The notes: a model not told the origin generated them from the letters alone. A stretch of DNA of 64,000 nucleotides from Eledone cirrhosa (GCA_964016885.1 OZ024740.1:43896001-43960000), one strand, 5' to 3'. Shown: positions 7,090 to 48,542, counted from the first letter of the stretch. Numbers and translations: made by a program.

Positions 7090-7276
7090 AGTTGAAAATT
7101 GCCAACTTGACTGTCACCATTGAATTTGAACCTGAAGATTGCGAAAGCAGGAAAGTACTTGTTCAATTAACACTTAACATTTAATATTCTACCATACTAT
7201 TTCATTATAATATCATTATAATTTTAAAGGATTGTAAATAAAACGAGTAAATCAGACAAAGATGGAATTCCTTTTA

Positions 7277-9204: not shown

Positions 9205-10963
9205 TCAAAGGTGCATGTATAGTACATAGAAAAATATACAAATGTCAGGGAAGTGAATAGAGTATGAGTCATGATATACATGTGTGTATGTGTTTGGAGG
9301 GGGAACATTAGGTGTAGTGTTGGCGAATCTTGGGAAGCATGGAGTTTTAAAGGATGCAGTGTCTCGACAGCTAACAACTGATGCAGGTAGTTTGTTCCAT
9401 GCTTCAGCAACTCTGAGCGTGAAAAGATGTTTCCGAAAGTCATGGGAACTGTGCTGCTTTCTGGCTTTGTGGACATGGAATTCAAAAAGGTACTCAGGGT
9501 TGTTGTTGGCAAGATGGGTAACAATTTTGTGGATGTTTACCAAGTCAGTTGCCAGGCGTCGGAGCTTCAATGTATTCATGCCCAGGGAAGCAAGGCGTTC
9601 AGAGTATGGTAGGGTATACGCTTGATGGAGGATATACGCTTGGTTGCATGTCTCTGAACAGTTTCCAGGCGCTCAATGTTCTGAGCAAGATAGGGGTTCC
9701 AGACAGGTGATGCAAATTCTAAGTGTGGCCGCACCATAGCCATGTAGAGCCTTAAATAGATAGCTGGAGAGCGGCTGACAAAGGTCTTGCTGAGTGATGC
9801 TAAGACACCCTCGGCCCTCTTGACAATTTTAGAGACGTGCTTTGTCCAACGCAAATCGCTGCTGACTGTAATGCCCAGGTCACGTTCACAAGAAGAATTC
9901 TTGATATTAGTGTTGTTGAGGGAGTATGTGGACGCTGGGTTTTTACTCCCAAAATGCATGGTGGTGCACTTGTTCACAGCTAGCTTGAGTTGCCAGTCTG
10001 AGATCCATTGTTGCATTGTGTCCAGGTCATACTGCAAGCAAGATCTATAGTGTTCAGGATCGGCCCTTTTTATCTCAAGGTGCAGCTTGATGTCATCTGC
10101 GTACTTTAGTACTGTGGCATTCTTTAAGTTGGCATCTATGTCATTAATATATGCCACAAACAAAAGGGGGCCACCAGATGACACCTCATATGGTGAGGAT
10201 GCTGTCCTAGAACCGTGACTACCTTTCTTCGACTGAGAATGAAGGACTTCAACCAGTTAAAAAGATCATCCTTCACACCCATTGCAGAGAGTTTTGCCAT
10301 AAGCCTTTTGTGTGGCACAGAATTGAAAGCTTTCGCAAAGTCAAGGTAAACAACATCCACCCATGAGCCGCCATCAGTGATCCGGGTGATGTTTTCAAGA
10401 AACTCGATAAGTTGATCACAGCAGCTGGAGTTGGGGATAAATCCAAATTGCGAGGGCCGGATAAGACTGTGAGGGTTCCAGAAATTCCAAAGTCTTTCGC
10501 TGACACAGGATTCCATCAGTTTGGCAATGCAACTAGTAAGACTGACTGGACGATACTTCACAGGTGATGTGCGGTCACCCTTTTTGAACAGAGGAATGAC
10601 ACTGGCAGTTTTCCACTGTTCTGGAGTAACACCGTTGTTCAGACAGAATTGGAAGAAGCGCGATAGCTGGTGCAGAAGGAAGTACCCACCACGTTTAAGA
10701 AGCAGGTACGTAACACCATCAAGACCAGGAGAGGCATGGTTGCGTTTATTTTTTACGTGACGTCGCAGCATTGCAGGTGTAAATTCCATGGTTGTAATAG
10801 AATCCGGTGTCATAGGTGGTGGAGACGGTACACTCTGGTCTTCATTAGTGAAAATGCCTGCATAGCATTCAGCAATGAGCTCTGCGCATTCCTTGGGGTC
10901 GTCAGTAACTTGGATTGTGAAGAGGACCAATTGGAGAGTGAGGCCTCTGCTTTGAGTGAACAA
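9205..10963 (-). pseudogene. LINE ORF2 reverse transcriptase and C-terminus (frameshifted, three fragments)
   Basis: SPGLDG, PLFKKGD, YRPVSLTS, QFGF, YLDFAKAFNSVPH, YADD, VRPHLEFASPVWNP, RVAEAWNKLP. Confidence 0.94.
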
Positions 10964-11144
10964 CCTTACTGTCAGGGCTGGTTTCTATGCGCTGCTCAAA
11001 TTCAAGCACTGCCTTTTTTGTCACCTGTTTGAGGTGGTTGGACGATCTATTTCGCCTCTTCCTATTAATGTCTGATTTGTGCAGTTTGTACTAACATTCA
11101 GCATTGCGACGTTCTTTTCTGGCAAAACGGACTGCTGCAGTCTC

Positions 11145-12173
11145 TCAAATTGCAATTTTGGGATGTTTTTTCCGCTTACGTGGCAGCGATTCTGCACATG
11201 CTATCCATATTGAGCTCAGGATGTTCTGGAGTACAGTGTTTACATCTCCAGAGTCGTAGAACTCAAGCCAGTTTGGACGTTGCAACTCGGTGCAGTAACA
11301 GTTCCAGTTTGCTTTATTCCAGTCAAAGTGAGCAGTTTGGAGATGGTTGTGGTTCTGGTTACTGCCCATGAGGGATAGATTGGCAATGATCATAGCATGA
11401 TCAGAGTCACCTAAAAGTTCCTCAGCGGTAACACTAGTGACCGTTTCAGGAGTAGTGGTGAAGAGTAGGTCCAAAGTGTTGTCACCTCTTGTTGGGGAGG
11501 TGACTACTTGGGACCAATTCGAGTCCAGCACTAGCTCAAGGAAGTCATTTGCACTTGGCGGCCAACGAAAGGTTTCCCAGTCAATCTCAGGGTGATTGAC
11601 GTCTCCTGCAATAAAAACATAAGTGGCTGTTTTCCTGGCTGCAGCTCTGAGGATATCACAAAGTTGAGTGTCCTGATGGTAATTTGGGGGACGGTAAACG
11701 ACCCCAAAGAGCAGTGTTGACATGGTCATACGTATATCGCAGAAAAAAACTTCCGGCTGTGATTGGTTCAAATGAAGACAAGGAATTGCCGACAAATTTG
11801 ACCGAACGTAGACCATTACACCACCACCACCACCACCACGATTAATGCGGTCTTTACGAAACAGGTTGTAGCCAGTTATGCTGAAAACCCCAACACAGAG
11901 TAAGAGATGTGCCCAAGTTTCCGTGACTGTAATGAAGTAAGGGTTGACACTTTTGACGTAGGAGTAAAAAAGATGGATCTTATTGCATAGACTACGTGCA
12001 TTCAAGGACAACAATTTGTAACTTGATTCCAGTATATGATTATATGCAGGTGATGGCAGGTTGTTCTGATTTAGTTTCCCAGAGTTTTTCAGTTTTTTTA
12101 TTGTCAGTTGTTGTGCGTACAGTGTTTTCAGACCAGCTGGTATCTCTTTTCCATGTTTCACCAGCCTTAACAA
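11145..12173 (-). pseudogene. LINE ORF2 AP-endonuclease domain
   Basis: LNARSL, VTETW, GGGVMVYV, VYRPP, AGDVNHP, PTRGDNTLDL, SDH motifs. Confidence 0.93.
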
Positions 12174-13250
12174 ACTTCAATATCTGCCCATCATCACGTA
12201 GGCTGAAGCTTTCATGTTCTGCCGAGCTGCGGTTTAAGGAGGCTGCAGCCCGCAACTTTGGGCGGACAACAGGTGGAAGACCAGGGCATGTTCGGAAAGC
12301 AATCCGACTTTCACGCCTAGCTTTATCAGAGGCTACAAAATATGAACGTGCCTCAGTTGAGTTCGAAAACGACAGTCTAATTAGCCTCCTGGGTTTCGGG
12401 CCTGGTCGGCCAAGGCGTAGAACACCCTTCGCGGGAGCACAGCCCAAGTCTTTGGATGAATTGGCAGCAAATGCCTGAAGATCAACTATGTCTTCTAGTA
12501 CACCAATGGCAATCACTTCGTGGTTTGCAGATTCAGTGGCATTCTCAATGCGTCTAAGTTCGACATGAGGTACGCGGAGATTTTTTAACAAGGCACTCCG
12601 GTAAGATCCCTCATTGTGAGGTTCTACACGAACGCTTGATTTTATTCCCGCTATTTCTCGGCTTAAAGCGGAAATCATTTGCCGTATTTCCTCAAACTCC
12701 GTATTGACGGTCGATTTTTGTTGTTGTTCTTTTCCTTCAACAGGCATGGTAGGAGAAGACACAGTCGTCGGTTGTTGTTGTTGAAAAGTAACGAGGGAGG
12801 AAGACATGGGTTGCTGTTGTTGATGAAGTCCTTAAACGGGGCAAGTGGCAGAAGCTACGTTCGTTGGTTTTTGCTATTGTTCAGGAACAATGGTAGAGGA
12901 AGACACGATATTCCGTTTTTGTTGTTGTTGTTCAGCAGCAATGGTAGAGGCAGACATACAGTCAGGCACTGAAAGGACCAATTTGTTAGCTGGACCATCT
13001 CCCAGAGTCCATCCATCATAGCAATATGATGTTTATTGTTTTGGTCTGGGATCTTAAGGAAGCCTGTGGCGCATTGAAGGCAGACAGAGATGTGACAGGT
13101 TCCACATTCGACCCAACGATTACAGAACGAGTTTTCGGGTTCCGTACAGATGTGATTTTCTGGGCAATGTTCTATTTTGGAACATCGACCAGTTTTGTCG
13201 CTACTTCCTCCATGGATATCACCATGGCAATTTTGTTATTTCTGCCCATC
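12040..13250 (-). pseudogene. LINE ORF1-like remnant (coiled-coil, Q/T/S-rich internal repeats), interrupted by stops
   Basis: ORFs 13172-13396 and 12040-12807 directly upstream of APE; EFEEIRQMISALSREIAGIK coiled coil, RLGRPGPKPRRLIRLSF motif. Confidence 0.6.
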
Positions 13251-17036: not shown

Positions 17037-18151
17037 CTACCCACCCGGGTCGTTATGGGGTTTGAGGACTAGGTAAGTCCTATGCAATCTGTGTTTGCAT
17101 GCGGTTACGAGTTCGTCTTTCTTGTTTAGGAGTTGGTCCTTCGAAAACAACATTTGTAATGTTTCCTCCGAGCATAAGTTACACAGACGGCGTCCTCCCA
17201 TGTAAGAGTTAGCTCTGGACAGTAAGCTCCAAGTGAGATTGTAGGTTATATTATTATCTTGGAGGTCCCAGATGTGGCCCAAAAGTGTAGTGGCATGACG
17301 CCAGACCGGGTTTCGGAAAGTATGTCGGTGTTGGTAGAGCCAGGTCTTGAAGTCACACGCGGTCAATCCTATATAAGCTTTGTGGAGGTGTCCGTCCTCA
17401 TGTTGCACTGGTAGATCACGTTCCGTTATCGGCATCTGTTTTTGATGGGGTACATGGATCTATCAGGACAGTTACACCTCCTGGTCGGCTCTCCACTGAT
17501 GTCTAGGTTATTTCTTCCATAGGGGTTTAGTTTTTTGTTGTTTGAGGAGACGATGTTTTGTGCGAAGTTAGGTGTGGTGCTCTAGGAGAGTTTGATGGTG
17601 TTTTTGTTGATTATGTTGTTGTAGCGGTGTTGTAGTGGGAAGTATTTTTTGAGGTGTCTAAAGAAGATTTTCCCGATAGGTGTTGCCACCTCGGCATTAT
17701 GGGGAGAATTGAACCACGTTACGTTGCATGAGCGGCGGTGTCGCCTGCTGGTTCCGCTAAGGGAAGCTGGATAAAAGGATATTTCCTCCTGGAAGCCACT
17801 CCGCTTGAGGGCCTGGTTGTAATGAGGCACATGTTCGTCGAATATCTGCTCATTAGCGGACAAACGAGATATGCGGAGGGAGATATTTTTAACCAGGTTA
17901 TTGGTGATGTTTCTAAGATGGTTAGAGCGGCGGTGGATGTAGTGCAGGTTGTCGTTTGGTTTCCTGTATGTGTAGTACAGATCATTTTCGAGGTTAAGGG
18001 TAACATCCAGGAAATTGACTCGGGTTAGGGACGTTTGTAGGGTGATTTTAAATCCCCAGTTCCGGAAGAAGTTGATTAGTTGTTTACGGACCCGGTCTGT
18101 ACTACTGGGGTTGTACCCTTTGAGGGTGAGGAGCCCATTATCCCGGTACAA
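17037..18151 (-). pseudogene. PLE RT thumb + GIY-YIG endonuclease fragments
   Basis: ORFs 17582-18151 and 17037-17435 with stops/frameshifts between. Confidence 0.87.
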
Positions 18152-20632: not shown

Positions 20633-21456
20633 TCGAACTTCGAATATGCTGTACTATTCTATTACTATCTCCTAGACCTAATGATTAATTGATTAATTTA
20701 ATTTAACAATTCCATTGATTGGTTGATTATTTGAGTTTGTTTAATAATGGTCAAATGATTAATAGATTAATTTAATTTGACAATTCCATTGATTGGTTGA
20801 TTATTTGAGTTTTTTTAATAATGGTCAAATGATTAATAGATTAATTTAATTTGACAATTCCATTGATTGGTTAATTATTTAAGTTTGCTTAATAACGGTC
20901 TGGTTGAGTGCTTAATTCAGTTTGTGTATGGAGTTTTTTCCATTGCCCATTATTTTTGAATTGACCGCCAGAAACTGGGGATACCTCCCTTTGGAGTAAC
21001 ATGTGCTTCACACCGGGTTTTGGGCTAGAACGAAAGCCTGTTGAGAAAGTAAATTCCTCTGTTCGATCTTCCAGAAACCTAACTTGTATACACCATAAGC
21101 GGATTTTGTTGATTTCGGATTTACAGAAACCTCACTTGGATATTCAGTAATTTCCAAGTTTTGGTCCAGGTATGTTATATATACAGATATCTGCATATAT
21201 GTATGTATGTATATTTTTATATGTATATATGTGTGTGCGTGTGTGTGTGTGTGTGCGTATTTCCTTTTCTCACTAGTCAGTTCTTTCGTTGCTACAGATC
21301 ACGCGGATGAATTAGCGGTCGCTATTTTCAATTTGCAAAGCCCTTTAAACTGCATTTTATTACTCTGAGGTCTATTCCTTGTCGAGTGCTTGGCTGCACT
21401 GCTGAAGGCATTCATTGGCTTAGCTGCTGATCGAACTTCGAATATGCTGTACTATT
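20633..21456. repeat. ~800-bp TA-flanked unit with 26-bp terminal direct repeat
   Basis: tcgaacttcgaatatgctgtactatt at ~20633 and ~21431; TA runs on both sides. Confidence 0.6.
20681..20900. repeat. 74-bp minisatellite, three copies
   Basis: atgattaat..ttccattgattgg.. starts at 20681, 20755, 20829. Confidence 0.9.
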
Positions 21457-21468
21457 GTATACATATAT

Positions 21469-21854
21469 ATGAAGGACTCACTTTTTCATATGTATCCCAT
21501 TTGCAACGCTGCAGCTCCATTATTATCATATTTACACATATATTTTTTCCATGCTGCCATTCGTGTTTCGTTTGTATCTTTACCCTTTCTAGCAGTCTCT
21601 CTCTCTCTGTTAGCCTCCTCCTCAACTTTCACTCACTCATTCTCTGTCACTACCTCTCCTCCTCCTCTTTCCTCCTCCTCCTTCAAGTTTGACCTGTGTG
21701 TAATTCTTTTCTCGCGCGGTCTTGACCAAGCTGGTATGGAATTTTTTTCTCTCTCTCTTTCGTCTGCGACTTCACAAAACTTACGTTTACTGAATTCGTA
21801 GAACAGACCCCTTTATCTTCTTCTTCTTCTTCTTCTTCTTCTTCTTCTTCTTCT

Positions 21855-21889
<35 letters not shown>

Positions 21890-23347
21890 TTCTTCTTCTC
21901 TCCTTTTTCTCTCTCTCTTTTTTCCCCCCCGTCAAACTTGGGCGAAATTCTTTCCTTGCTCACATTTCAACCAGGTTTGATGGTCTTTTGTCTCTTGTTC
22001 ACGATTTCACAGAGTTTATATTCATAGAGATCTGGGACTTGTCTATTTCTACTCACTTTCCGTTGCTAAAACTTTTTTGTTGTTACTCTGGCGTCCCCCT
22101 TTATTTACGTGTCCCAACGACTTTTTTTAGCCGTTGTTCGCACCAACCCGAGGCATATGGCCCTTAAAGCGATGAAATGCCCAGGACGGTTGGAGGGTCA
22201 CTGATGAAGGACTCACTTTTTCATATGTATCCCATTTGCAACGCCGCAGCTCCATTATTATCATATTTACACATATATTTTTTCCATGCTGCCATTCGTG
22301 TTTCGTTTGTATCTTTATCCTTTCTAGCAGTCTCTCTCTCTCTGTTAGCCTCCTCCTCAACTTTCACTCACTCATTCTCTGTCACTACCTCTCCTCCTCC
22401 TCTTTCCTCCTCCTCCTTCAAGTTTGACCTGTGTGTAATTCTTTTCTCGCGCGGTCTTGACCAGGCTGGTATGGAATTTTTTTCCTCTCTCTCTTTCGTC
22501 TGCGACTTCACAAAACTTACGTTTACTGAATTCGTAGAACAGACCCCTTTATCTTCTTCTTCTTCTTCTTCTTCTTCTTCTTCTTCTTCTTCTTCTTCTT
22601 CTTCTTCTTCTTCTTCTTCTTCTTCTTCTTCTTCTCTCCTTTTTCTCTCTCTCTTTTTTTCCTCCCCGTCAAACTTGGGCGAAATTCTTTCCTTGCTCAC
22701 ATTTCAACCAGGTTTGATGGTCTTTTGTCTCTTGTTCACGATTTTACAGAGTTTATATTCATAGAGATCTGGGACTTGTCTATTTCTACTCACTTTCCGT
22801 TGCTAAAACTTTTTTGTTGTTACTCTGGCGTCCCCCTTTATTTACGTGTCCCAACGACTTTTTTTAGCCGTTGTTCGCACCAACCCGAGGCATATGGCCC
22901 TTAAAGCGATGAAATGCCCAGGACGGTTGGAGGGTCACTGATGAAGGACTCACTTTTTCATATGTATCCCATTTGCAACGCCGCAGCTCCATTATTATCA
23001 TATTTACACATATATTTTTTCCATGCTGCCATTCGTGTTTCGTTTGTATCTTTACCCTTTCTAGCAGTCTCTCTCTCTCTGTTAGCCTCCTCCTCAACTT
23101 TCACTCACTCATTCTCTGTCACTACCTCTCCTCCTCCTCTTTCCTCCTCCTCCTTCAAGTTTGACCTGTGTGTAATTCTTTTCTCGCGCGGTCTTGACCA
23201 AGCTGGTATGGAATTTTTTTCTCTCTCTCTTTCGTCTGCGACTTCACAAAACTTACGTTTACTGAATTCGTAGAACAGACCCCTTTATCTTCTTCTTCTT
23301 CTTCTTCTTCTTCTTCTTCTTCTTCTTCTTCTTCTTCTTCTTCTTCT

Positions 23348-23382
<35 letters not shown>

Positions 23383-26300
23383 TTCTTCTTCTCTCCTTTT
23401 TCTCTCTCTCTTTTTTCCCCCCCGTCAAACTTGGGCGAAATTCTTTCCTTGCTCACATTTCAACCAGGTTTGATGGTCTTTTGTCTCTTGTTCACGATTT
23501 CACAGAGTTTATATTCATAGAGATCTGGGACTTGTCTATTTCTACTCACTTTCCGTTGCTAAAACTTTTTTGTTGTTACTCTGGCGTCCCCCTTTATTTA
23601 CGTGTCCCAACGACTTTTTTTAGCCGTTGTTCGCACCAACCCGAGGCATATGGCCCTTAAAGCGATGAAATGCCCAGGACGGTTGGAGGGTCACTGATGA
23701 AGGACTCACTTTTTCATATGTATCCCATTTGCAACGCCGCAGCTCCATTATTATCATATTTACACATATATTTTTTCCATGCTGCCATTCGTGTTTCGTT
23801 TGTATCTTTATCCTTTCTAGCAGTCTCTCTCTCTCTGTTAGCCTCCTCCTCAACTTTCACTCACTCATTCTCTGTCACTACCTCTCCTCCTCCTCTTTCC
23901 TCCTCCTCCTTCAAGTTTGACCTGTGTGTAATTCTTTTCTCGCGCGGTCTTGACCAGGCTGGTATGGAATTTTTTTCCTCTCTCTCTTTCGTCTGCGACT
24001 TCACAAAACTTACGTTTACTGAATTCGTAGAACAGACCCCTTTATCTTCTTCTTCTTCTTCTTCTTCTTCTTCTTCTTCTTCTTCTTCTTCTTCTTCTTC
24101 TTCTTCTTCTTCTTCTTCTTCTCTCCTTTTTCTCTCTCTCTTTTTTCCTCCCCGTCAAACTTGGGCGAAATTCTTTCCTTGCTCACATTTCAACCAGGTT
24201 TGATGGTCTTTTGTCTCTTGTTCACGATTTTACAGAGTTTATATTCATAGAGATCTGGGACTTGTCTATTTCTACTCACTTTCCGTTGCTAAAACTTTTT
24301 TGTTGTTACTCTGGCGTCCCCCTTTATTTACGTGTCCCAACGACTTTTTTTAGCCGTTGTTCGCACCAACCCGAGGCATATGGCCCTTAAAGCGATGAAA
24401 TGCCCAGGACGGTTGGAGGGTCACTGATGAAGGACTCACTTTTTCATATGTATCCCATTTGCAACGCCGCAGCTCCATTATTATCATATTTACACATATA
24501 TTTTTTCCATGCTGCCATTCGTGTTTCGTTTGTATCTTTACCCTTTCTAGCAGTCTCTCTCTCTCTGTTAGCCTCCTCCTCAACTTTCACTCACTCATTC
24601 TCTGTCACTACCTCTCCTCCTCCTCTTTCCTCCTCCTCCTTCAAGTTTGACCTGTGTGTAATTCTTTTCTCGCGCGGTCTTGACCAAGCTGGTATGGAAT
24701 TTTTTTCTCTCTCTCTTTCGTCTGCGACTTCACAAAACTTACGTTTACTGAATTCGTAGAACAGACCCCTTTATCTTCTTCTTCTTCTTCTTCTTCTTCT
24801 TCTTCTTCTTCTTCTTCTTCTTCTTCTTCTTCTTCTTCTTCTCTCCTTTTTCTCTCTCTCTTTTTTTCCTCCCCGTCAAACTTGGGCGAAATTCTTTCCT
24901 TGCTCACATTTCAACCAGGTTTGATGGTCTTTTGTCTCTTGTTCACGATTTTACAGAGTTTATATTCATAGAGATCTGGGACTTGTCTATTTCTACTCAC
25001 TTTCCGTTGCTAAAACTTTTTTGTTGTTACTCTGGCGTCCCCCTTTATTTACGTGTCCCAACGACTTTTTTTAGCCGTTGTTCGCACCAACCCGAGGCAT
25101 ATGGCCCTTAAAGCGATGAAATGCCCAGGACGGTTGGAGGGTCACTGATGAAGGACTCACTTTTTCATATGTATCCCATTTGCAACGCCGCAGCTCCATT
25201 ATTATCATATTTACACATATATTTTTTCCATGCTGCCATTCGTGTTTCGTTTGTATCTTTACCCTTTCTAGCAGTCTCTCTCTCTCTGTTAGCCTCCTCC
25301 TCAACTTTCACTCACTCATTCTCTGTCACTACCTCTCCTCCTCCTCTTTCCTCCTCCTCCTTCAAGTTTGACCTGTGTGTAATTCTTTTCTCGCGCGGTC
25401 TTGACCAAGCTGGTATGGAATTTTTTTCTCTCTCTCTTTCGTCTGCGACTTCACAAAACTTACGTTTACTGAATTCGTAGAACAGACCCCTTTATCTTCT
25501 TCTTCTTCTTCTTCTTCTTCTTCTTCTTCTTCTTCTTCTTCTTCTTCTTCTTCTTCTTCTTCTTCTTCTTCTTCTTCTTCTTCTCTCCTTTTTCTCTCTC
25601 TCTTTTTTTCCTCCCCGTCAAACTTGGGCGAAATTCTTTCCTTGCTCACATTTCAACCAGGTTTGATGGTCTTTTGTCTCTTGTTCACGATTTTACAGAG
25701 TTTATATTCATAGAGATCTGGGACTTGTCTATTTCTACTCACTTTCCGTTGCTAAAACTTTTTTGTTGTTACTCTGGCGTCCCCCTTTATTTACGTGTCC
25801 CAACGACTTTTTTTAGCCGTTGTTCGCACCAACCCGAGGCATATGGCCCTTAAAGCGATGAAATGCCCAGGACGGTTGGAGGGTCACTGATGAAGGACTC
25901 ACTTTTTCATATGTATCCCATTTGCAACGCCGCAGCTCCATTATTATCATATTTACACATATATTTTTTCCATGCTGCCATTCGTGTTTCGTTTGTATCT
26001 TTACCCTTTCTAGCAGTCTCTCTCTCTCTGTTAGCCTCCTCCTCAACTTTCACTCACTCATTCTCTGTCACTACCTCTCCTCCTCCTCTTTCCTCCTCCT
26101 CCTTCAAGTTTGACCTGTGTGTAATTCTTTTCTCGCGCGGTCTTGACCAAGCTGGTATGGAATTTTTTTCTCTCTCTCTTTCGTCTGCGACTTCACAAAA
26201 CTTACGTTTACTGAATTCGTAGAACAGACCCCTTTATCTTCTTCTTCTTCTTCTTCTTCTTCTTCTTCTTCTTCTTCTTCTTCTTCTTCTTCTTCTTCTT

Positions 26301-27024
26301 CTTCTTCTTCTTCTTCTTCTTCTTCTTCTTCTTCTCTCCTTTTTCTCTCTCTCTTTTTTTCCTCCCCGTCAAACTTGGGCGAAATTCTTTCCTTGCTCAC
26401 ATTTCAACCAGGTTTGATGGTCTTTTGTCTCTTGTTCACGATTTTACAGAGTTTATATTCATAGAGATCTGGGACTTGTCTATTTCTACTCACTTTCCGT
26501 TGCTAAAACTTTTTTGTTGTTACTCTGGCGTCCCCCTTTATTTACGTGTCCCAACGACTTTTTTTAGCCGTTTTTCGCACCAACCCGAGGCATATGGCCC
26601 TTAAAGCGATGAAATGCCCAGGACGGTTGGAGGGTCACTGATGAAGGACTCACTTTTTCATATGTATCCCATTTGCAACGCCGCAGCTCCATTATTATCA
26701 TATTTACACATATATTTTTTCCATGCTGCCATTCGTGTTTCGTTTGTATCTTTACCCTTTCTAGCAGTCTCTCTCTCTCTGTTAGCCTCCTCCTCAACTT
26801 TCACTCACTCATTCTCTGTCACTACCTCTCCTCCTCCTCTTTCCTCCTCCTCCTTCAAGTTTGACCTGTGTGTAATTCTTTTCTCGCGCGGTCTTGACCA
26901 AGCTGGTATGGAATTTTTTTCTTTCTCTCTTTCGTCTGCGACTTCACAAAACTTACGTTTACTGAATTCGTAGAACAGACCCCTTTATCTTCTTCTTCTT
27001 CTTCTTCTTCTTCTTCTTCTTCTT

Positions 27025-27055
<31 letters not shown>

Positions 27056-28221
27056 TTCTTCTTCTTCTTCTTCTTCTTCTTCTTCTTCTTCTTCTTCTTC
27101 TTCTTCTTCTTCTTCTTCTTCTTCTTCTTCTTCTTCTTCTTCTTCTTCTTCTCTCTCTCTTTCCCCACCCCCCGTCAAACTTGGGCGAAATTCTTTCCTT
27201 GCTCACATTTCAACCAGGTTTGATGGTCTTTTGTCTCTTGTTCACGATTTTACAGAGTTTATATTCATAGAGATCTGGGACTTGTCTATTTCTACTCACT
27301 TTCCGTTGCTAAAACTTTTTTGTTGTTACTCTGGCGTCCCCCTTTATTTACGTGTCCCAACGACTTTTTTTAGCCGTTGTTCGCACCAACCCGAGGCATA
27401 TGGCCCTTAAAGCGATGAAATGCCCAGGACGGTTGGAGGGTCACTGATGAAGGACTCACTTTTCATATGTATCCGATTTGCAACGCCGCAGCTCCATTAT
27501 TATCATATTTACACATATATTTTTTCCATGCTGCCATTCGTGTTTCGTTTGTATCTTTACCCTTTCTAGCAGTCTCTCTCTCTCTGTTAGCCTCCTCCTC
27601 AACTTTCACTCACTCATTCTCTGTCACTACCTCTCCTCCTCCTCTTTCCTCCTCCTCCTTCAAGTTTGACCTGTGTGTAATTCTTTTCTCGCGCGGTCTT
27701 GACCAATCTGGTATGGAATTTGTTTCCTCTCTCTCTTTCGTCTGCGACTTCACAAAACTTACGTTTACTGAATTCGTAGAACAGACCCCTTTATCTTCTT
27801 CTTCTTCTTCTTCTTCTTCTTCTTCTTCTTCTTCTTCTTCTTCTTCTTCTTCTTCTTCTTCTTCTTCTTCTTCTTCTTCTTCTTCTTCTTCTTCTTCTCT
27901 CCTTTTTCTCTCTCTCTTCCCCCCCCCCCCCCCGACAAACTTGGGCGAAATTCTTTCCTTGCTCACATTTCAACCAGGTTTGATGGTCTTTTGTCTCTTG
28001 TTCACGATTTCACAGAGTTTATATTCATAGAGATCTGGGACTTGTCTATTTCTACTCACTTTCCGTTGCTAAAACTTTTTTGTTGTTACTCTGGCGTCCC
28101 CCTTTATTTACGTGTCCCAACGACTTTTTTTAGCCGTTGTTCGCACCAACCCGAGGCATATGGCCCTTAAAGCGATGAAATGCCCAGGACGGTTGGAGGG
28201 TCACTGATGAAGGACTCACTT

Positions 28222-28229
<8 letters not shown>
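21469..28229 (+). repeat. Tandem array of nine ~720-810-bp units with internal variable (TTC)n; retrozyme-like
   Basis: Recurrent landmark atgcccagg at 22177, 22914, 23670, 24400, 25121, 25863, 26614, 27420, 28180; begins and ends with atgaaggactcactttttcatat; TA flanks. Confidence 0.97.
22143..22219 (+). ncRNA. Candidate non-circularly permuted hammerhead ribozyme (copy 1 of 9; others at 22880, 23636, 24366, 25087, 25829, 26580, 27386, 28146)
   Basis: GGCA-TA-TGGCCCT (22152-22164), GAAA-TGCC (22174-22181), AGGGTCA-CTGATGA (22194-22207): stem III 5 bp, stem I 7 bp, AUA triplet, intact core. Confidence 0.7.
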
Positions 28230-28279
<50 letters not shown>

Positions 28280-28282
28280 GTA

Positions 28283-28324
<42 letters not shown>

Positions 28325-30659: not shown

Positions 30660-31310
30660 TATAAAGTATGTCCATAGAATCATTTGATAATATATATACA
30701 CCATTTCCTCTCCCAATTAGCATAATTAACCACACAAAAAAATCAATTAAACCAGGCTATAAGATTAAAAGGCACCCATGAAGAAATAGTAGATAAATAA
30801 ACGACACCAATCTATTCGCGACCAACGGCTATAGAATATTTACCCAACATTTCAATAGCATGTGGAAATCGATTAAATATCCCGTCAACCATACACAATT
30901 AGATATAAAATTAAAGCTAGAAGAGAAAATGCATATACACATACCAGGATTGCGTTTCTACCTTTAGGGTTTCGTTCGCTTTCGCAAATATCCTATTAAG
31001 GATAAAATCTCGAGCTTCGGCTTCATCAGGAAACAAACTCATTTGGACAAAGAATTTTCTTAAGTGATCCCCGTCAGAAACGAATTCAAAATGGCTAAGA
31101 ACTGTGACGTGGCAGTGGTTAAGTCAGAAAGAATGTGCTTGGTTGCTTACAGCGAGTGGGCCGGTTGCTAGAAAGCGCAGCCCAATATTGCCCAAATTGC
31201 ATCTCAACCTTAAGGGAGATTATTAAATATAAAGATTTACATACACAAATTAGACAAAGTCACAGATATATATGTTTTGGCAACTATTCACGATGTGTCT
31301 CAATGATGAA
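30660..31310 (-). mobile_element. TA-inserted pLTR-like repeat (family of 4515-5200)
   Basis: Colinear similarity with 4515-5200; minus cctgatga-agcc-gaagctcgag at ~31009-31030. Confidence 0.65.
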
Positions 31311-32121: not shown

Positions 32122-33918
32122 CTAACAGCGCTGCGATCGAATGTGGCTTTTTAGCCCAGCCAATGATCTAAAATGTCTTGCACAGAGTCGGCAACCAAAA
32201 CATTCACTGGGAATAGTCGGTTGTGGTTGGAGTTCGTGTAATTTTGTATGTCGCTTGAGCCCACCTGCTGATTTACATTCTCTACCACATGTTTGGCAAG
32301 CATGATGAGTAGCATCTCCAACAGCAGCCTGGTAGTCAACCAATGGTCTTACTTTATGACTGCGAAGATGACTTTCTAGTCTAGCTTTGCTTAGGCAGAG
32401 TCTCGCACATACGCTGCATGTCAGCACCATAGGAGGACGCTCGCCGTCTGGAAGTGCAACAGCAATGCCCTTCCTCACATCCCGCTTTACTTTCTCGTAT
32501 GCGATTCGAGATGCCTCAAAGGCAACTTTTCCCTCATATACAGTCTTTCTCCATTTATTACGATCAGCAGCAATATTCTCCCATGTATCAGCAGAGATGT
32601 TAGCGTCTATCAGAGATGCTTTCAAGGAATCCTTATACCTCTTTTTTGGTTTATGTGGCGGTCGTTTTCCTTTAACCAACTCTCCATAAAAGAGTTGTTT
32701 TGGTATTCTAGAATCCTTCATCCTGGCAAGGTGACCACTTCAACGGAGTCGTTGCTTAAGCACAAGAGCTTCTATACTGTCTCACATAGAGCTTTCCAAA
32801 ATCTCGATATCACTGATGTGGTCCCTCCAGTGAACGCCATGGATCCGTCTGAGACACATCTGATGGAAACGCTCCAATTTCTTAAGGTGGTGTCGATATG
32901 TGACTCAGGTCTCGCAGGCATAAAGAAGACAAGAGAGCACACATGCCCTGTACACCTTTACCTTTATCCTCCAGCATATGTCTCGCCGACCCCAGAGTCG
33001 CCTTTCTAGCTTTCCGAAAGCATCACTTGCTTTCCTAATCCTAAGTGAGATTTCACTGTCAAGGTTGCCGTATCGATTGACAGTGCTTCCCAGGTAGACA
33101 AACTGATCAACCACTCCAAGTCGTTTGCCATACACATAGATGTTTGGTTCAGTGTACTGCTTACCAGGGGCAGGTTGGTACATGACGACGGTTTTCTTGA
33201 GACTGACAGTCAATCCTAGGGCAGTGCAAGCGTCAGAAAATGCATTCAAAATGTGCTGCACATCACTCTCTGTGTGCGCTACAAGATCGCAATCATCTGC
33301 ATACAAGAGGTCTCTTATGATTGATGTAAATACTTTTGTCTTCGCAGCAAAGCGCCTGATGTTAAGTACGCTGCCTGAGGTTCGATATCGGATGTAAACA
33401 CCATGCTCGCAATTCCTGAATGCAATACAGAAAACCATTGCAAAGTATATGGCAAACACGGTCGGTGCTGGAATATCCCCCTGTTTCACTCAATTTTTTA
33501 CTGAGATAGGCTCCGACATGTTACCTCCGACATTAACCCAAGCCTTCATGTCGTCATGGAAAGACTTAACTAAAGCAAGGAACTTATCAGGGTAACCAAG
33601 TTTCTGGAGAACCTTCCATAATGCATCTCTGTTAACAGTATCGAAAGCTTTTGTCAGATCGACAAAAACCTGATACAGATCCAAGCCTTGTTCCATGCAC
33701 TTCTCCTGGAGCTGTCTAGCTGAGAAGATCATATCAGTAGTGCCGCGTCCAGCACGAAAACCAGATTGACTTTCAGGAAGAACACAATCTGCAATGTGTG
33801 TCAGCAGACGGTCCAGAAGCACCCTACATAAAACTTTCTCTACGACAGAAAGCAATGATATACCTCTGTAGTTCCCATAATCATTCCTGTTACCCTTTCC
33901 CTTGTACAAGACCACCAT
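32122..33918 (-). pseudogene. RTE ORF2 RT and C-terminus with three C2H2 zinc fingers (disrupted)
   Basis: NYRGISLLS, QSGFR, FVDLTKAFDTV, KQGD..AP, LLYADD, FVYLGS, RIPKQLFYGEL, three CxxC..S..GL..H motifs. Confidence 0.93.
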
Positions 33919-33957
33919 TACTGCATCTCTCCAGTCCTCAGGTACGGATTCATTAGC

Positions 33958-35560
33958 CTATATCCTGCCAAACAAAGAGTGAAGATGCTGCAGGAGTCTC
34001 TCACCACCATATTGTAGGAGCTCAGCATGTATGCCATCAATACCTGGAGATCTTCGACTGTTCAGCTTCGAAATAGCCACTGCAACCTCCACAAGCGTCG
34101 GAGGTTCTGCGAGAGCTATTTTCACAGGACTTTCTGGAATGAGATTGAGGAAATCTTCACTGACGACAGACGGCTGATTCAAAAGATCATCAAAGTGCTC
34201 TCGCCACCTTCGTAGAATTCCTTGTGAGTCACGAAGAAGTTCTTTGCCATCCTTGCTGCGAAGCGGTGTCACCAAAGAAGACGGTCCATAAACCTCACGC
34301 AAGAGACTGTGCAACAGCTTTGTGTTATTGGAATCTGACGCAGTCTGTATCTCACCAGCCTTCTCACTCCACCACTGATCCTTCATCTGAGAAAGACTCC
34401 GCCTAACACGTGATTTTACATCCCTGAGTTCCTCATGCAACGTATTCCTCTCCTGTGGTTTTGCCGTCAAGTAGCGTGACAGAGCACGCCTCTTATCAGC
34501 CAACAAGTCTTCTATATGTACATCATTCTCATTAAACCAGTCCTGATGTTTCCTCTGCGCCAATCCCAGAACACGCCTGCCCACATCATAAACCGACTTT
34601 TTAAGAGTCGGCCAATCCTCACCAAGATCTGCAGCCTGCATCTCTTCTTCCAATGTCCTCTTCACATTTTTATCCTTAAGACGAGCAGCATTCAATCTTT
34701 TGGGCAGGGCAACACCAGGAGCCCGGATTTTACCTTTAGTGATTAGTTTCACTTTTGCGCGTACCAGGCGGTGGTCCGCCCAGCACTCAGCTCCACGAAG
34801 AATACGAACACACTGCACATCCTGTCTGTCACGCATCCTGACTAGGACGTAGTCCAAAAGATGCCATTCCTTAGATGCAGGATGCATCCATGTGGTCTTG
34901 AATTTGTTCTTTTGTTGGAACATGGTGTTGGTAACACACAGATCCAGCTCCTCACACATCTGCAGCAGGAGCATACCATTGTTTTTACACTGTCCCACCC
35001 CATGCCTTCCGATTACATTCCATGTGTTAAAATCCCTACCCACTCTAGCATTAAAGTCACCAAGCACGATGACTTTGTCTGCCTGAGGGATATTTCTTAA
35101 AACACCTTTCAAGGCATGGTAAAAGGACACTTTTTCTTCATCGACAGAATTCATAGTTGGAGCATACACACTCACCAGGGTCGCATATCTTCCCTTGTCC
35201 AGCGGAACTCTCATGGACATAAGACGCTCACTAACCCCTAATGGGAATTCTTCTAATTTATTCACAAGTACAGTCTTAACAGCAAATCCTACCCAGCCTC
35301 TCTTCTGGTTGCTTCATCTCTTCCTTTCCAGAAGAATGTATATTCTCCACAAAATTCCGTAGGATGACCATCTCCAGCTAACCTCGTCTCAGATAAAGCC
35401 ACGATGTCAAGATCGTAACGTCGAAGCTCCTTTGCAACAAGAGCGGTACTTCGTTCAGGACGCTCGAAGGAATCCCTGTCAAGCAGCGTCCGTACGTCCC
35501 AGCAGCCAAGACTAAATGCCTTGTTTGGCTCTATTACAATGGCACGATAACAAGCGGGCC
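33958..35560 (-). pseudogene. RTE ORF2 AP-endonuclease and linker
   Basis: WDVRTL, IVALSETRL, SVYAPT, LGDFNARVG, TWMHPASKEWHLLDYVL, ADHRLV, SPGIDGIHAE. Confidence 0.93.
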
Positions 35561-36015
35561 CAGGCTGTGATAACCTGGGGCCCCTGCCCTTATTGCCAAT
35601 TATCTTTTTTGTTCCAGAACCTAAATTGCCAATTATCTCTTTTATATTGTTCTGGAACATCATTGAATTGGAAAAAAAAGAAAGAAAAAAAAAAGTAATA
35701 ATAATAGTAATAATAATAATAATAATAATAATGATTTCATTTATTAGCCACAAGGGCCGACATGTAGGGGACAATACAAAGACAGGGACAGTGGGGGTTT
35801 ACAATAAGGTCGAGTAAAAGTGCACAATGGCAAGACTAATTTAACAATGAAAATATAAAATATAAAATATAAAATAAACTATGCAAAATATAACAAAATA
35901 AATTCCCCGATAGGGGGTGGACGACCCTGGGGTGATTCGGGTACCCCACCAATCCTGAACCACCCGGCGCTTCTAGGGCACCCAGGAGAGCACCCCTCTC
36001 CTCAAGTTAGCTAGC

Positions 36016-38463
36016 CTATAGGCGCATGGTCAGAGTAGGCCCATTCACACGAGCCATTCTTGCCACATTCACCCACCTTTTAGCAAATGTACTGGGGGGC
36101 AGCACTTCTCTCTCCACCCTCACCCTCCTTTCCAGGTGAAACTTGAAGAAGTTGATGAGGGATTGGCCGAAGAGAAAAGTGTCTGTCTTTAGTCCTTTCA
36201 ACCTGGTCCACCATATACTTTCTTTCGCAACTGCCACCAGACAGAGGAAAATGTCTTGCTCTTCCTGACCTAAGGAAGGTGGCGGCTCGATCTTCACTAT
36301 GGACTCGGCCGATAACTGGATTCGTTCCACACGCGAAAGTAGCTGTTCGACATAACTCCACAAGTCAGTAATGCACGGACATTGGACAAGTGCGTGCAGA
36401 ACGGTTTCGTCGTTCTGTGCGCATCTTGGGCAGGTCCGTCTGACAGCACTTCCGTGCCTGTAGAGTTTATCCCGAACCGGCAGTGCCCCCCGGTAGCACT
36501 GCCAAGCGAGGGATTTCTGGAAATTGTCCATCGTCCCCGGCTCAAAAGTCCTCCGGTACAGACTGGTCAGTTCGACTTCGTCGAGGCCCAAAGCTTCTCC
36601 GAGTGCGTCATCGCACTTGCCCACCACTAATCCTCTATAGAACTCGAGAGTGGAAGTTCCACTGATCGCATTGCCCACTTGGTAGAGGGCAGTGAGTGCC
36701 TGGCAACATTCCAGGTGCCAGTCACCCAGTCTCGGTCTCTTCGTGACCCAGGACTGCAGCTCAGTCAAAGAAATGAGCTGCGGAAAGGCCCGTCTGATAA
36801 ACGGCGACCACACCTGTTCACCATTGAGGCAGAATATCTGGAGATGTCGCAGCCTCAACGCATGTCTGCGCATCATTAGCCACGGCATGCCCAGCCCTCC
36901 GTGTAGAGGGTGCTGGCAGCAGATGGACCGCCTCACCAACGGAACTTGTCCCCTCCACAAGAATTTGAAGAGGAGCCGTTCCAACTTGACGAGGCGCGGA
37001 CGGGGGCAAGGCACGACGGTTAGGCGGTAATAGATGACGGACGCGATGTACGCATTCGCCACCTCCGCGCGACCTTTCAGTGATAGCTTCCTCCCAGCCC
37101 ATTTTTGGGTGAGACTGGCTACTCTGCTCGTTACCTCGTCCCAATTCTTTTCCACCTGGAGGTCTGGTCCGAACCAAACCCCGAGCAACTTTACTGGTCC
37201 GTCCGTCCAGCGCCCCACGACGCTGTTGGACGGCATGGGCTTGCCTCTCCAGGTTCCGAGCTGCAAGCCCACCGACTTTTCCGGGTTAAGTTTGGCTCCT
37301 GTCAACCTTTCATATTCTTTCAATAAGGTGCCGACCACCTCGATTTCTGAGGTGTTCGACACCATCACGGTGATGTCGTCCGCATAAGCTGACACCGCCT
37401 TTCCACGTCCCGGTTCAAGCGGGATGCCCTGCAACAGCTCCAGCTTCCGCAGTAAAGGCTCGAGAGTCAATACGTACAGAAGGGAAGAGAGAGGGCACCC
37501 TTGACGGACCGATCGGGAGAGCCGAAATGGTTCCGAGAGGTGGCCATTAACTTTGACCACCGAGCGTGTGTCGCTGTGCATTGCAACGATCCAGCTTCTA
37601 AAGACAGGGCCGAAGCTAGCTGCTTTGAGGACAAACTCCAGATACCGATGGTAGACCCTATCGAATGCTTTCGATTGATCTAAATTGATCAGTGCCCCAC
37701 CGAAGCCAGGTTTGCACCCTAGCCTCTCTATGATGTATCGCATGAGGTGGAGATTGTCGTGTATGGACCTGGCTTGGATTGCGCAAGTTTGCGCCTCCCC
37801 AACCAAATCCTCGACGACAAGCGCCAATCTCTTTGCTAACACCTTGGCCAAAATCTTAAACTCTGTGTCGAGCAGAGTTATGGGCCTGAAGTTGTCTAAT
37901 GTATCCCTCTTGTTCTCGTCTTTCCTTATCAGCGTCACCACTCCCCTGCTCACAGAACTGGGAATACTCCCATTCTGCTGCCAGTTACAGTAGAGTGCTT
38001 CAAGGAGTTCGGAGAACAAGTCTGGCATATTTACGTAAAGCTCGTAGGGCAGGCCATCCAAGCCTGGTGACTTGCGCCTCATGCAGCCGACAAGGGCGTC
38101 CTGAATTTCGGCTGAAGTAATCGGCCTTTCGCAGCGCTCAGCGTCGACCGTCGAGATGCGCGGCAAGCCGTCGAGGTAGGGACTGAAATCCGCTACTCTC
38201 TCTGACCCGCCACTCTCCCCGAACAACCGAGCAAAGTGCTGGCGAAAGGCCTCACACATCCGCTTGGAATCGCTTATCTCGTGTCCGTCTCGGTCCGCCA
38301 AAGACCGAATTGTGGTTTTATTACCACGCTGCGCCTCCGCCACGCGGGCCCATCGAACAGCTTTAGTTCCCTCGTTTCTCAGCGCACGCGCCTTAGCTCT
38401 GACAATGCAACCTTCGTGTTTGGCATTGAAGAAATGGTCTAATGCCATTCTCGCCGCTAGCAC
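36016..38463 (-). CDS. Tx1-like ORF2 reverse transcriptase with C-terminal CCHC zinc motif
   Basis: KSPGLDGLPYELY, FRPITLL, LDQSKAFDRV, VRQGCPLS, AYADD, GGLGMP, CPRC...ETVLHALVQC; joined to APE by frameshift at C-run ~38514-38523. Confidence 0.95.
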   Translation of the reverse strand: MLAARMALDHFFNAKHEGCIVRAKARALRNEGTKAVRWARVAEAQRGNKTTIRSLADRDGHEISDSKRMCEAFRQHFARLFGESGGSERVADFSPYLDGLPRISTVDAERCERPITSAEIQDALVGCMRRKSPGLDGLPYELYVNMPDLFSELLEALYCNWQQNGSIPSSVSRGVVTLIRKDENKRDTLDNFRPITLLDTEFKILAKVLAKRLALVVEDLVGEAQTCAIQARSIHDNLHLMRYIIERLGCKPGFGGALINLDQSKAFDRVYHRYLEFVLKAASFGPVFRSWIVAMHSDTRSVVKVNGHLSEPFRLSRSVRQGCPLSSLLYVLTLEPLLRKLELLQGIPLEPGRGKAVSAYADDITVMVSNTSEIEVVGTLLKEYERLTGAKLNPEKSVGLQLGTWRGKPMPSNSVVGRWTDGPVKLLGVWFGPDLQVEKNWDEVTSRVASLTQKWAGRKLSLKGRAEVANAYIASVIYYRLTVVPCPRPRLVKLERLLFKFLWRGQVPLVRRSICCQHPLHGGLGMPWLMMRRHALRLRHLQIFCLNGEQVWSPFIRRAFPQLISLTELQSWVTKRPRLGDWHLECCQALTALYQVGNAISGTSTLEFYRGLVVGKCDDALGEALGLDEVELTSLYRRTFEPGTMDNFQKSLAWQCYRGALPVRDKLYRHGSAVRRTCPRCAQNDETVLHALVQCPCITDLWSYVEQLLSRVERIQLSAESIVKIEPPPSLGQEEQDIFLCLVAVAKESIWWTRLKGLKTDTFLFGQSLINFFKFHLERRVRVEREVLPPSTFAKRWVNVARMARVNGPTLTMRL

Positions 38464-38504
38464 GTCAGTTGCGATGCCACTACAAATAGCCTCGTCTAAC
38501 TTAT

Positions 38505-39440
38505 CTACCAGCTCCCCCCCCCCTTTCTATTTTTCTCTAACGCTAGTTCTTTGCTGAACTCTATCGAAGTTACTCTAATCTCTCTTTTGAGAGCCCCCCA
38601 CCATCTGTTGTTGATGATCCCCCCTGTCAACTTTTGCTTAACTAACTTATTGACTCGGTCCCTGTAAGCCTTACGTGCCGGAAATGACATGTTCAGCTTC
38701 CAGTAACCCGGTCCTAACCTACGCGTTTTATTTAGGTCGACCGTACAGATCACAAATTTGTGATCTGAATAGGCGACCGTTTTAAAAAGTGGACAGCCCA
38801 CACTATTTCTATCTATTTTCCTAATGAAGATTCTGTCTATATACGATCTAGATGACCCCATTCGGTTGGTCCATGTCCATACTGGCACATTGGGGAAATC
38901 TAGTCGATACCTGTCAGACAGTTGGAACTGGCTGAGTAGGTGCTTGAGGCTTTTGCACCCCCCGCTCCTATCGGCTACTCCCACACAATCCCAGCGTGCG
39001 TCTAAGATGCCATTCCAGTCCCCCGCTAACAGTAAAGGGCGAGACGTACCCAGAAAGGTCTCCAGGCGCCTAAAGAAGTCAGGTCGTCCGGCCCCTGTAG
39101 GGGCGTAGGCCGCCAGCAGTCTAAAGGCACCACCTTCGCTACTGCTCACATCCAAGACCACCAACTTACCGTCCGGGTCCCGGAAGATCGACCTTACCTC
39201 GAGATCCAGTCCTTTCCTAAACAGCACTGCCACCCCACCCCCCATTCCCGGCCTGCTAACAGATGCGAAGATCTGATAGCCGTCGAAAATGGTGGCTAGT
39301 GCACGCGTGTCGGAAATTCTGGTCTCGCTTACGGCAATCACATCCATTTCCAGCGACCGGAGGTCGTTGAGCAGGCGACCCTGCTTCCTGGGTGACCCCA
39401 GGCCGCGAACATTTAAACTTCCTACTCTTAATATGGCCAT
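38505..39440 (-). CDS. Tx1-like ORF2 N-terminal AP-endonuclease
   Basis: SLNVRGL, SETR, GGVAVLF, AYAP, AGDWN, TW, SYIDRIF, SDH, GPGYWKLN. Confidence 0.93.
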   Translation of the reverse strand: MAILRVGSLNVRGLGSPRKQGRLLNDLRSLEMDVIAVSETRISDTRALATIFDGYQIFASVSRPGMGGGVAVLFRKGLDLEVRSIFRDPDGKLVVLDVSSSEGGAFRLLAAYAPTGAGRPDFFRRLETFLGTSRPLLLAGDWNGILDARWDCVGVADRSGGCKSLKHLLSQFQLSDRYRLDFPNVPVWTWTNRMGSSRSYIDRIFIRKIDRNSVGCPLFKTVAYSDHKFVICTVDLNKTRRLGPGYWKLNMSFPARKAYRDRVNKLVKQKLTGGIINNRWWGALKREIRVTSIEFSKELALEKNRKGGGSW

Positions 39441-39449
39441 ATTGGTAAG

Positions 39450-41439: not shown

Positions 41440-41679
41440 AATTTTCTTTTGGTGGGGAAGCGATTTTTTTTCGAAGATTTTAAAAATAAATCTGAATATT
41501 CGGGCTTAAAGCCCGAATATTGAGAGGTATCCCTCTCTTTAAATCAAGATGTGTACCTTAAGTTTCGTTAATGACAAGAAAATACAAAAAAAAGACACTT
41601 TAAAACAGCTTAAAGCTACCAACCGTTTCCCCCGCAGACTTGTCTGTCTTCACACATGTGAATAATAATAATAATAGTA

Positions 41680-47101: not shown

Positions 47102-48478
47102 GTAGGGTAGAACACTGGAAGGTATTATACGTAGTAGTAGAGCACTCATTCCACGGGACGAGTTATGTAGAAGTGGTTACACAACAGTTAGTTCACAATA
47201 CCGAGAACTATTGTTTCACCTTAGCGGCTCCTCAGCTCGTAATGAAGATGGTTATACGGTACAGGAAGGATAACCGTACGAACGCGCATCCGCAGAAACG
47301 ATCATTTCACACAGGCAATACTAAATTGCGTGCGAGAGGTGTAAGGGAGATAACTGCAAAAGTCCGAAAGTTTCTAGGTGATAAGAAAATTAGGATGTTG
47401 TTGTAATTCAATCCGGAGCTTTGTTGTTATGTAAGAGGTGTTTCCATACGTGTGGACAACGTGTGAATAATTCATTTCTCGTGGTCAGGCAATCACTATT
47501 GCGTAATCTCTTTAGAATATTTATTCGTTCATCAATACATAGTTCACACGACGGATTGCCGCTTGCGTATGGCTTGGACAAAGTGATGGCTTTCCATTGA
47601 ATGGAGTAGTCTATACTTGAGTCCCCGAGGGACTATATGTGGCTTGCGGTTTTTTGGATGAACGTCTGTCCGGGTACCTAAAGGTCGACTGTTGGTTCAG
47701 GAAACGTTCCTTAAATCGGCCCTCCGCCATACCCACATAGGATTTGACCTCAGCTTCATAAACTACAGCGGGTGTGTTGCATTGCTGTTGAAGGGGACAA
47801 GCTTCGGGCTTACGGCAAGAGCACCCTGGTGGGGTGTTGCTTTTAGGGCTGTTAGTGATGTGGGCCTTCATGTTCTTAGCGCAGGAGTATCCTTGTTTTA
47901 CTTTGTGTCGGTTAAAGATGGGGCGGTATTTATGACCTATGGGAAAGTGTCTATCTAAGAGGGTTAGACATTTTTTGCCTACATTGGTTTTAACGTTGAG
48001 TGAGAAGGGAGGAGAGAAACAGATAGTTTGTCTATTGTTACGCTTTCTTTTCTTATTGTTGTTGTTAGTGGGAGAGTAAGTGATAGATTGCGAGAAGCCG
48101 CTGTTAGCTAACGCCGTGTTACAGTAGGGTGTCGCCCTTTCAAAGATAGCCTTATTAGAGGAGAGGTTTGAGATTCTAGTACTGATATTATTTACGAAGT
48201 TCCTAAAAACAGTGGGAGGGTGGCATGAGTCCTTGTGAATGTAATTGAGTTTTTGTTTAGCTTATGGAAGGGTCTATGGGTGTGTGTGCGAAGGTCTAAA
48301 TTAATGTCTAAGAAATCTACGCTAGAGAGGTCAGTAGCTACTGTTATCCTAAGTCCTAACTCATTGAAGGTAGAAGTTAAGTCTTTTTGAAACCGGGTGA
48401 GGTCGTGACCACTTTTATGGCTCGATAAGGTCAGTCCATCGTCGCGGTATATTCCCGTGTGGAAGTCCGGGAATCTTG
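47098..48478 (-). mobile_element. Third Penelope-like element, 5'-truncated
   Basis: GIYRDDGL, VDFLDINL, CSCRKPEACPLQQQC, VVYEA..SYVGMA..FKERF; hammerhead in 3' part. Confidence 0.88.
47198..47243 (-). ncRNA. Minimal type I hammerhead
   Basis: Minus: taCGAG-[CTGAGGA]-GCC-gctaa-GGT-[GAAA]-C-aata-G-[TT]-CTCGgta; GUU triplet. Confidence 0.75.

Positions 48479-48504: not shown

Positions 48505-48542
<38 letters not shown>

Follow-up and report, generated by a model that had tools for sequence, protein, structure and literature searches.

A young, dispersed, non-coding family in Eledone cirrhosa with Penelope-like-element ends and a predicted hammerhead of scrambled block order

Within a 64,000-nucleotide (nt) stretch of the Eledone cirrhosa genome (GCA_964016885.1 OZ024740.1:43896001-43960000; hereafter the window, from whose first letter all positions are counted), positions 21469..28229 hold nine head-to-tail units of ~740 bp, plus strand, followed by a 23-bp partial unit. 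We read this array as an insertion of a young, dispersed and non-coding family that is probably copied by a Penelope-like element (PLE) and carries a hammerhead with covarying stems, its conserved blocks standing in the order S-G-C, that is predicted to cut plus-strand RNA into ~740-nt monomers; we give this reading a probability of about 0.75. The novelty lies in the wiring of the hammerhead, whereas retrozyme-like arrays, PLE-type ends and a monomer of ~740 bp are known already. Retrozyme families with monomers of 51-972 bp are on record (Li et al. 2026, 10.64898/2026.07.22.740005), which removes the distinction that the original prediction had attached to the large monomer. The array itself, nine units of 740 bp, is not special; the ribozyme carries the interest.

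The first of the nine predicted ribozymes spans 71 nt (22138..22208, plus strand). It opens with the strand that would complete stem II (22138..22141, pairing with 22169-22172) and with one strand of an extra helix (22143..22148, pairing over 6 bp with 22188-22193), which would close a kink-turn-like loop made of GA at 22150-51, a variable 3-nt bulge at 22182-84 and GA at 22185-86. Block S (22152..22163) comprises a stem III strand (22152-56), the unpaired A17 at 22157, 3' of which the cut is predicted, and a stem I strand (22158-63); block G (22169..22181) comprises a stem II strand, U11.1, GAAA (22174-77) and the other stem III strand, which runs to 22181; and block C (22195..22208) comprises the second stem I strand (22195-200), CUGAUGA (22201-07) and A22208, a candidate 10.1 partner of U22173. 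On the plus strand, the predicted cuts fall after 22157, 22894, 23650, 24380, 25101, 25843, 26594, 27400 and 28160. There is one CUGAUGA per unit, and its GAAA sits upstream. A descriptor covering all six block orders returned S-G-C in nine of nine units, on the plus strand only, and gave no hits in five shuffles of 454,940 bases. The expectation of one ribozyme-like motif per unit thus held, but the motif is not a standard hammerhead: S-G-C was the only order, no type I (C-G-S) hammerhead was found in the units, and Rfam placed no ribozyme in the array at the gathering threshold or at E<=10, a weak mir-2 match (E 0.056) lying far below the cut-off.

A conventional stem II, with its strand directly after CUGAUGA, would have only 1 bp; the helix is completed instead by the strand upstream of block S. 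Kink-turns follow a rule of a canonical stem, a 3-nt bulge, tandem GA/AG pairs and a non-canonical stem, and a matching sequence pattern is present in subfamilies A-E of the family, its downstream GA being forced by the search pattern; its upstream G is missing in some other families. Such a loop would fold stem III back, bringing three helix tips together. By eye, the flanks of block C could pair over 5-6 bp in subfamily B but are mismatched in A; this pairing was left out of the counts below. A weak hairpin at 22204-22224, whose 5' base corresponds to the array start and whose 3' base is one of the family's fixed 3' ends, overlaps the CUGAUGA sequence and would stand in competition with the ribozyme fold. 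Twister, pistol, hairpin and hepatitis delta virus readings, weighed by eye against their consensus, were dropped, stems I and III covarying as in a hammerhead.

We hold with high confidence, on comparative grounds, that the hammerhead fold is real and conserved. Three two-sided changes in stems I and III separate subfamilies A and B, and among 138 copies stem I takes mainly three paired types (59, 48 and 15 copies) and stem III two (57 and 54); position 17 varies between A and C and position 7 between U and C, both of which hammerheads tolerate. When four helices were scored in 24 diverged copies, 92.5% of cells paired and 16 of the 21 pairs showed a two-sided change, with none of 500 shuffles matching that pairing and slid controls reaching 27-47%, although stems I and III had served to select the aligned copies, which partly builds their pairing in, and sequence relatedness inflates the shuffle control. 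The 24 copies were drawn from 39 cluster representatives, after removal of four truncated upstream, ten with other spacing and one misregistered. Stem II and the extra helix were not selection criteria; the extra helix is 94% paired, with two-sided changes at five of its six pairs, the upstream strand of stem II alters on both sides in other subfamilies, and in some families the base after CUGAUGA and position 11.1 switch together between A-U and G-C. Whereas the stems change among the diverged copies, the catalytic residues do not vary, CUGA-GA and GAAA having been part of the search patterns. That the modelled hammerhead is also catalytic is probable. At least four more repeat families (L288, L295, L315, L318, L323-L325) have the same scrambled layout with other stems; upstream homology between their copies extends for at most ~700 bp, and they carry no long PLE open reading frame (ORF).

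The array has many relatives. Across the source assembly (3.0 Gb), where the figures count motifs and not insertions, the subfamily A core has 867 exact matches, a subfamily B-type pattern with at most one mismatch has 5,778 (B units measure ~635 bp), a looser core pattern has 11,441, and a pattern excluding both A and B has 2,089 vs 12 for its reversed control. On other contigs the best copies reach 99-100% identity, and near-identical copies lie on many contigs; the family is therefore young, mobile and dispersed, and is no single-locus satellite. The dispersed copies with variable 5' phases and TA flanks that a genome-wide search had been expected to uncover thus exist, and with thousands of dispersed motif matches the satellite alternative fails. 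A subfamily B unit (L059:1553-2184) has an internal duplication of ~140 nt at ~76% identity.

How the copies end points to how they were made. Two fixed 3' ends, 14-16 nt (end 1) and mostly 54-66 nt (end 2) past CUGAUGA, both abut (TA)n: of the 133 distinct core hits, end 1 terminates 43 and end 2 another 53, and the remaining 37 run on into another unit or are unclassed. In window coordinates end 1 lies at ~22224 and end 2 at ~22262-22274, with an optional tail between them (22224..22274, plus strand). The 5' ends are scattered across the unit (92 arms). Twenty insertions are two-armed and inverted. In six of these an arm is unclassed; of the 14 with both arms classed, 13 join end 1 to end 2, a single one carries end 1 on both arms, and end 2 never appears on both. 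For this tally 101 loci became 59 rows once overlaps had been merged and loci with a tail missed by the pattern dropped, and some arms were missed. Fixed 3' ends with an optional tail, 5' truncation, an inverted 5' copy and a microsatellite target are traits of PLE derivatives. According to Craig et al. 2021 (PMC8557442), PLEs form partial tandems, carry a 5' copy in inverted orientation and have a tail of 30-40 bp at one end, and in the anole Poseidon PLE the tail lies between two internal reverse transcriptase (RT) start sites and both strands are extended (Frangieh et al. 2024, PMC11167929). These published features match the ends of the family, from which we infer PLE-type mobilisation with two RT starts, ends 1 and 2 marking sites that lie downstream of the predicted cut by ~67 and 105-117 nt. 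The paired ends would be the genomic record of a PLE priming both DNA strands on one RNA. [quoted passage not shown]

We posit that the plus strand is transcribed and that the RNA would be cleaved after A22157 and its equivalents, with stem II completed by the upstream strand and stem III bent back. By analogy with known retrozymes, the monomers may then be ligated into circles, and plus-strand RNA circles have about even odds. A PLE protein would nick (TA)n and begin cDNA at the two internal sites, with circular or uncut RNA as template and the cut site read through; priming by both DNA strands would yield two-armed inverted copies in which end 1 and end 2 each occur once. The present copy could have reached nine units later, via local duplication or unequal exchange. 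Across 71 units from 24 loci and the window, the units of one insertion, inverted arm included, mostly share one haplotype, and in several insertions (L017, L019, L026) variants seen in no other sampled locus are common to all units. Such uniformity fits repeated copying of one monomer, and homogeneous multimeric transcripts are also compatible with it.

The array shows how one such copy is built. Its 5' truncation falls within the CUGAUGA block and its 3' end is end 1. The units start at 21469, 22204, 22941, 23697, 24427, 25148, 25890, 26641 and 27447 and measure 735, 737, 756, 730, 721, 742, 751, 806 and 760 bp; with the remainder at 28207-28229, the count of exactly nine ~740-bp units (721-806 bp) plus 23 bp was correct. 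Identity to unit 2, the reference, is 95-99%, and length variation comes mostly from a (TCT)n tract, one per unit and variable in length (21816..21910 on the plus strand in the first), that is missing from the compared subfamily B unit. The 23-bp redundancy had been taken for a mechanistic feature. The 23-mer opens every unit (it is exact in eight of nine and in the end piece; the array amounts to 9.03 units) and the family's 5' ends are scattered, so that it arises where one truncation point overlaps the fixed 3' end and is not a separate terminal repeat; a target-site duplication was rejected on the same grounds. Nor is the array readily one clean rolling-circle product. Units 2 and 4 have two variants in common, and units 2 and 4-8 a third, all three absent from the closest dispersed copies, and this uneven distribution leaves a single nine-round product unsupported; it points to later local duplication or exchange, or to assembly noise, rather than to one nine-round cDNA. 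TA does flank both sides, as first described, but unequally: on the right (TA)n runs for ~50 units (28226..28324), while on the left there are only ~11 TA-rich bases (21458..21468), the 5' junction having AT in common with the flank. The absence of a credible ORF stands, the longest ATG frames in a unit dimer being 186 and 119 aa on the plus strand and at most 45 aa on the minus strand; the long plus-strand frames pass through the TCT tract as poly-Ser. The unit contains no Pol III boxes or TATA and seven runs of at least five T. The rest of the window has no array-like sequence; upstream of the array, at 20680-20900, a 74-bp AT-rich tandem repeat is present in three copies.

Measured against described hammerheads and mobile elements, the family is a mosaic. 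Type SGC hammerheads (HRIMA-1 and variants), reported in 2023 with a non-circular block order and described in that account as found only in metatranscriptomes, cleave in vitro at 0.007-0.13 per min (Eckert et al. 2023, PMC10085705). The present motif shares with them the S-G-C order with an intact core of all core nucleotides, a short linker between stems I and II and pseudoknotted stems I and III, which covary here under the selection noted above. In the published type, stem II has 5 bp formed after CUGAUGA, where the supplement to that paper places the stem II strand of SGC-1 and SGC-2, and a helix joins the flanks of block C, whereas here at most 1-2 stem II pairs come from behind CUGAUGA and the rest from upstream, stem III enters a kink-turn-like loop and a 6-bp helix, and the motif resides in an animal genome. 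Membership in the published type thus fails on the wiring of stem II. Likewise, the family resembles metazoan non-LTR (long terminal repeat) retrozymes in its non-coding tandem units without LTR-type ends, one same-strand hammerhead core per unit, GC below 50%, dispersed copies, PLE link and monomer size. Those retrozymes have a type I hammerhead, which the definition requires (Li, Clavereau and Pollet 2026, 10.64898/2026.07.22.740005), and linear and circular RNAs have been shown for them, whereas here the ribozyme is permuted and is predicted, together with a weakly paired circle, from sequence; strict membership fails on the hammerhead type. The family is like anole Poseidon in having two internal RT starts that define a tail, an AT-rich target and extension of both strands, and unlike it in that Poseidon is autonomous, has a canonical hammerhead and uses starts reported to lack homology to the target, while both ends here lie at AT-rich, target-like motifs.

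Parallels to the ribozyme are also found in Naiads. Craig et al. (PMC8557442) report for these PLEs no canonical hammerhead, only 'half cores'; eight Naiads are annotated HHR_half_core, and Naiad_Ovul is annotated with both a (TA)n target and HHR_half_core. By eye, the supplement has the upstream stem II strand, S, G and C in seven of 19 listed sequence places, including Naiad_Ovul. The family shares with Naiads the (TA)n target, 5' truncation, partial tandems, inverted 5' copy, a one-end tail and, at some 3' ends, the scrambled fold; it differs in lacking an ORF and in a tail of ~40-48 nt vs 30-40, and no sequence likeness beyond the ribozyme layout is shown. Naiad-like RT fragments in the source genome resemble octopus Naiads, again by eye. 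On these comparisons, descent of the ribozyme fold from a Naiad 3' end is fairly probable. Among titles and abstract openings outside subscription journals, none mentions a hammerhead, whether SGC or rewired, from animals or Naiads. A bolder scenario would have an active hammerhead of new wiring, its backbone opened behind CUGAUGA, with an upstream stem II strand and a kink-turn ring, stand as the missing Naiad ribozyme and drive a circular-RNA retrozyme, present in more than 10,000 copies, which remained mobile beyond the death of its Naiad parent by borrowing the enzyme of another PLE clade; taken as a whole, we consider it unlikely.

Beyond the selection and relatedness effects on the pair counts, several observations weigh against our reading. 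Of the four helices stem II is weakest, with 4 bp, 85% pairing and two-sided change at two of four pairs. In the best nested RNAfold structure a hairpin locks up CUGAUGA, and the stability does not exceed that of shuffles (z -1.0); nested folding misses a pseudoknotted fold such as that of the ribozyme. The modelled monomer circle is 41% paired (-124 kcal/mol vs -98 +/- 5 for 12 crude shuffles), in contrast to the 'highly self-paired' circles of metazoan retrozymes (Cervera and de la Pena 2020, PMC7229834). Genome-wide, in subfamily B only, 5' breakpoints number 14 at the predicted cut, and a control site lying 15 nt upstream has 17, ~3 of which may be small indels; cleaved linear RNA is therefore no visible template, and RT would have to read through a template that is ligated or uncut, unless the ribozyme is slow. 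A pile-up at the cut, hinted at by three of 92 arms within 1 nt in a set with four rows of alignment artefacts, was discarded on the genome-wide counts; some five of 92 arms and the present array begin in or near block C, too few for a hot spot. From other systems, only one of nine predicted Xenopus retrozyme dimers cleaved (Li et al. 2026), a PLE hammerhead proved dispensable for insertion in vitro (PMC11167929), and several other Naiad ends show, by eye, C before G. Among the Naiad matches listed, none had an intact RT and all were decayed, with a longest stop-free frame of 223 aa (150 of 3,210 candidates scored); no scrambled motif lay downstream of a Naiad-like RT in 20 fetched matches, and no Naiad RT occurred within 130 ribozyme loci. 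A first search with a degenerate RT motif had recovered no Naiad. Two sequencing runs (X1, X4) were set aside as evidence of expression: they cover LINEs (long interspersed nuclear elements) and other repeats about as deeply as the retrozyme, and resemble genomic DNA. In a metagenome scan, none of 120 loci resembled the motif region, and the matches were treated as chance.

Some of these points would equally suit the same element and fold operating without a circle, with uncut multimeric transcripts as template, the fold serving as a PLE recognition signal or in regulating RNA ends, and arrays growing as DNA. The lack of a 5' pile-up at the cut, the weak pairing of the modelled circle, the uneven variants of the array and the use of mainly unprocessed RNA by the anole PLE (PMC11167929) all favour this account; the invariance of catalytic residues amid changing stems (subject to the search patterns) and the insertions whose private variants occur in every unit, as a repeatedly read monomer would give, tell against it, and we rate it as possible but the less likely course. 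The scrambling could also be only apparent, with the ribozyme assembling in standard order between neighbouring units (S and C from one, G from the next, over a ~700-nt loop) or between two RNAs: the unit boundaries of a tandem array present all blocks in the standard cyclic order too, and axolotl retrozymes have dimeric hammerheads (PMC7229834). Yet the covarying extra helix and the kink-turn-like loop tie S to G inside one unit, spacing is constant across families, and the layout occurs once at Naiad consensus 3' ends (by eye), which makes a cross-unit ribozyme improbable. Least credible of all is an ordinary satellite or dead repeat that looks like a hammerhead by chance: the blank in Rfam would suit it, but thousands of dispersed copies with fixed ends, four covarying helices and a descriptor null count of zero largely refute it.

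The identity of the mobilising PLE is more evenly balanced. A non-Naiad element of Neptune-, Penelope- or Hydra-like type, intact in the source genome, could move the family, its ribozyme having been captured from Naiads now dead. The family is young, the examined Naiad matches are decayed, cephalopod Naiads are described as remnants (PMC8557442), and the source genome holds PLEs with a C-terminal GIY-YIG domain and open frames of 938, 844 and 1,096 aa (L261, L262 and L263), candidates for currently active elements. These long-frame PLEs have no sequence in common with the retrozyme unit, however; the units share no tail or pLTR sequence with 138 PLE loci, retrozyme insertions within such loci excepted; and an intact, more distant Naiad may have escaped the search. 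We place this alternative a little short of even odds. The neighbouring PLE inserts, to whose TA flanks the original prediction had likened those of the array, were rejected as partners: no scrambled motif of their own was found in 30 copies of the 44.8-kb family or in 50 GIY-YIG loci. In the window these inserts are broken PLE remnants (44373-45775, plus strand; 47611-48683 and 17582-18151, minus strand), and four of their frames gave no Pfam matches. The 44.8-kb family has more than 70,000 first-look candidates, some copies having open frames above 700 aa.

The window holds further mobile DNA. A canonical-order (type I) minimal hammerhead match at ~7110-7170 (plus strand) has a near-identical counterpart at the 3' end of a PLE in L264 whose C terminus bears GIY-YIG. 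A second ribozyme family may be represented by a repeat that combines CUGANGA and GAAA, in canonical order, with a long inner hairpin; it lies at ~760-850 and 1440-1530 (plus strand) and ~30950-31040 (minus strand), and recurs at two other loci (L331, L404). Three LINE-like elements with endonuclease and RT frames occupy 9205-12831, 32122-35798 and 36016-41505, the last with an 836-aa frame, and broken frames at 58992-62032 (minus strand) resemble a Helitron Rep-helicase.

The rewired form escapes both Rfam and standard hammerhead descriptors, and surveys of retrozymes would miss whole families of this kind. Its recognition would place a non-circularly permuted hammerhead in an animal genome, where the 2023 account of SGC motifs had only metatranscriptomes to draw on, and the small size of the motif, 71 nt, makes the wiring directly testable. 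If our reading is true, the claim that Naiads thrive without hammerheads needs revision, and the finding bears on why PLEs carry ribozymes.

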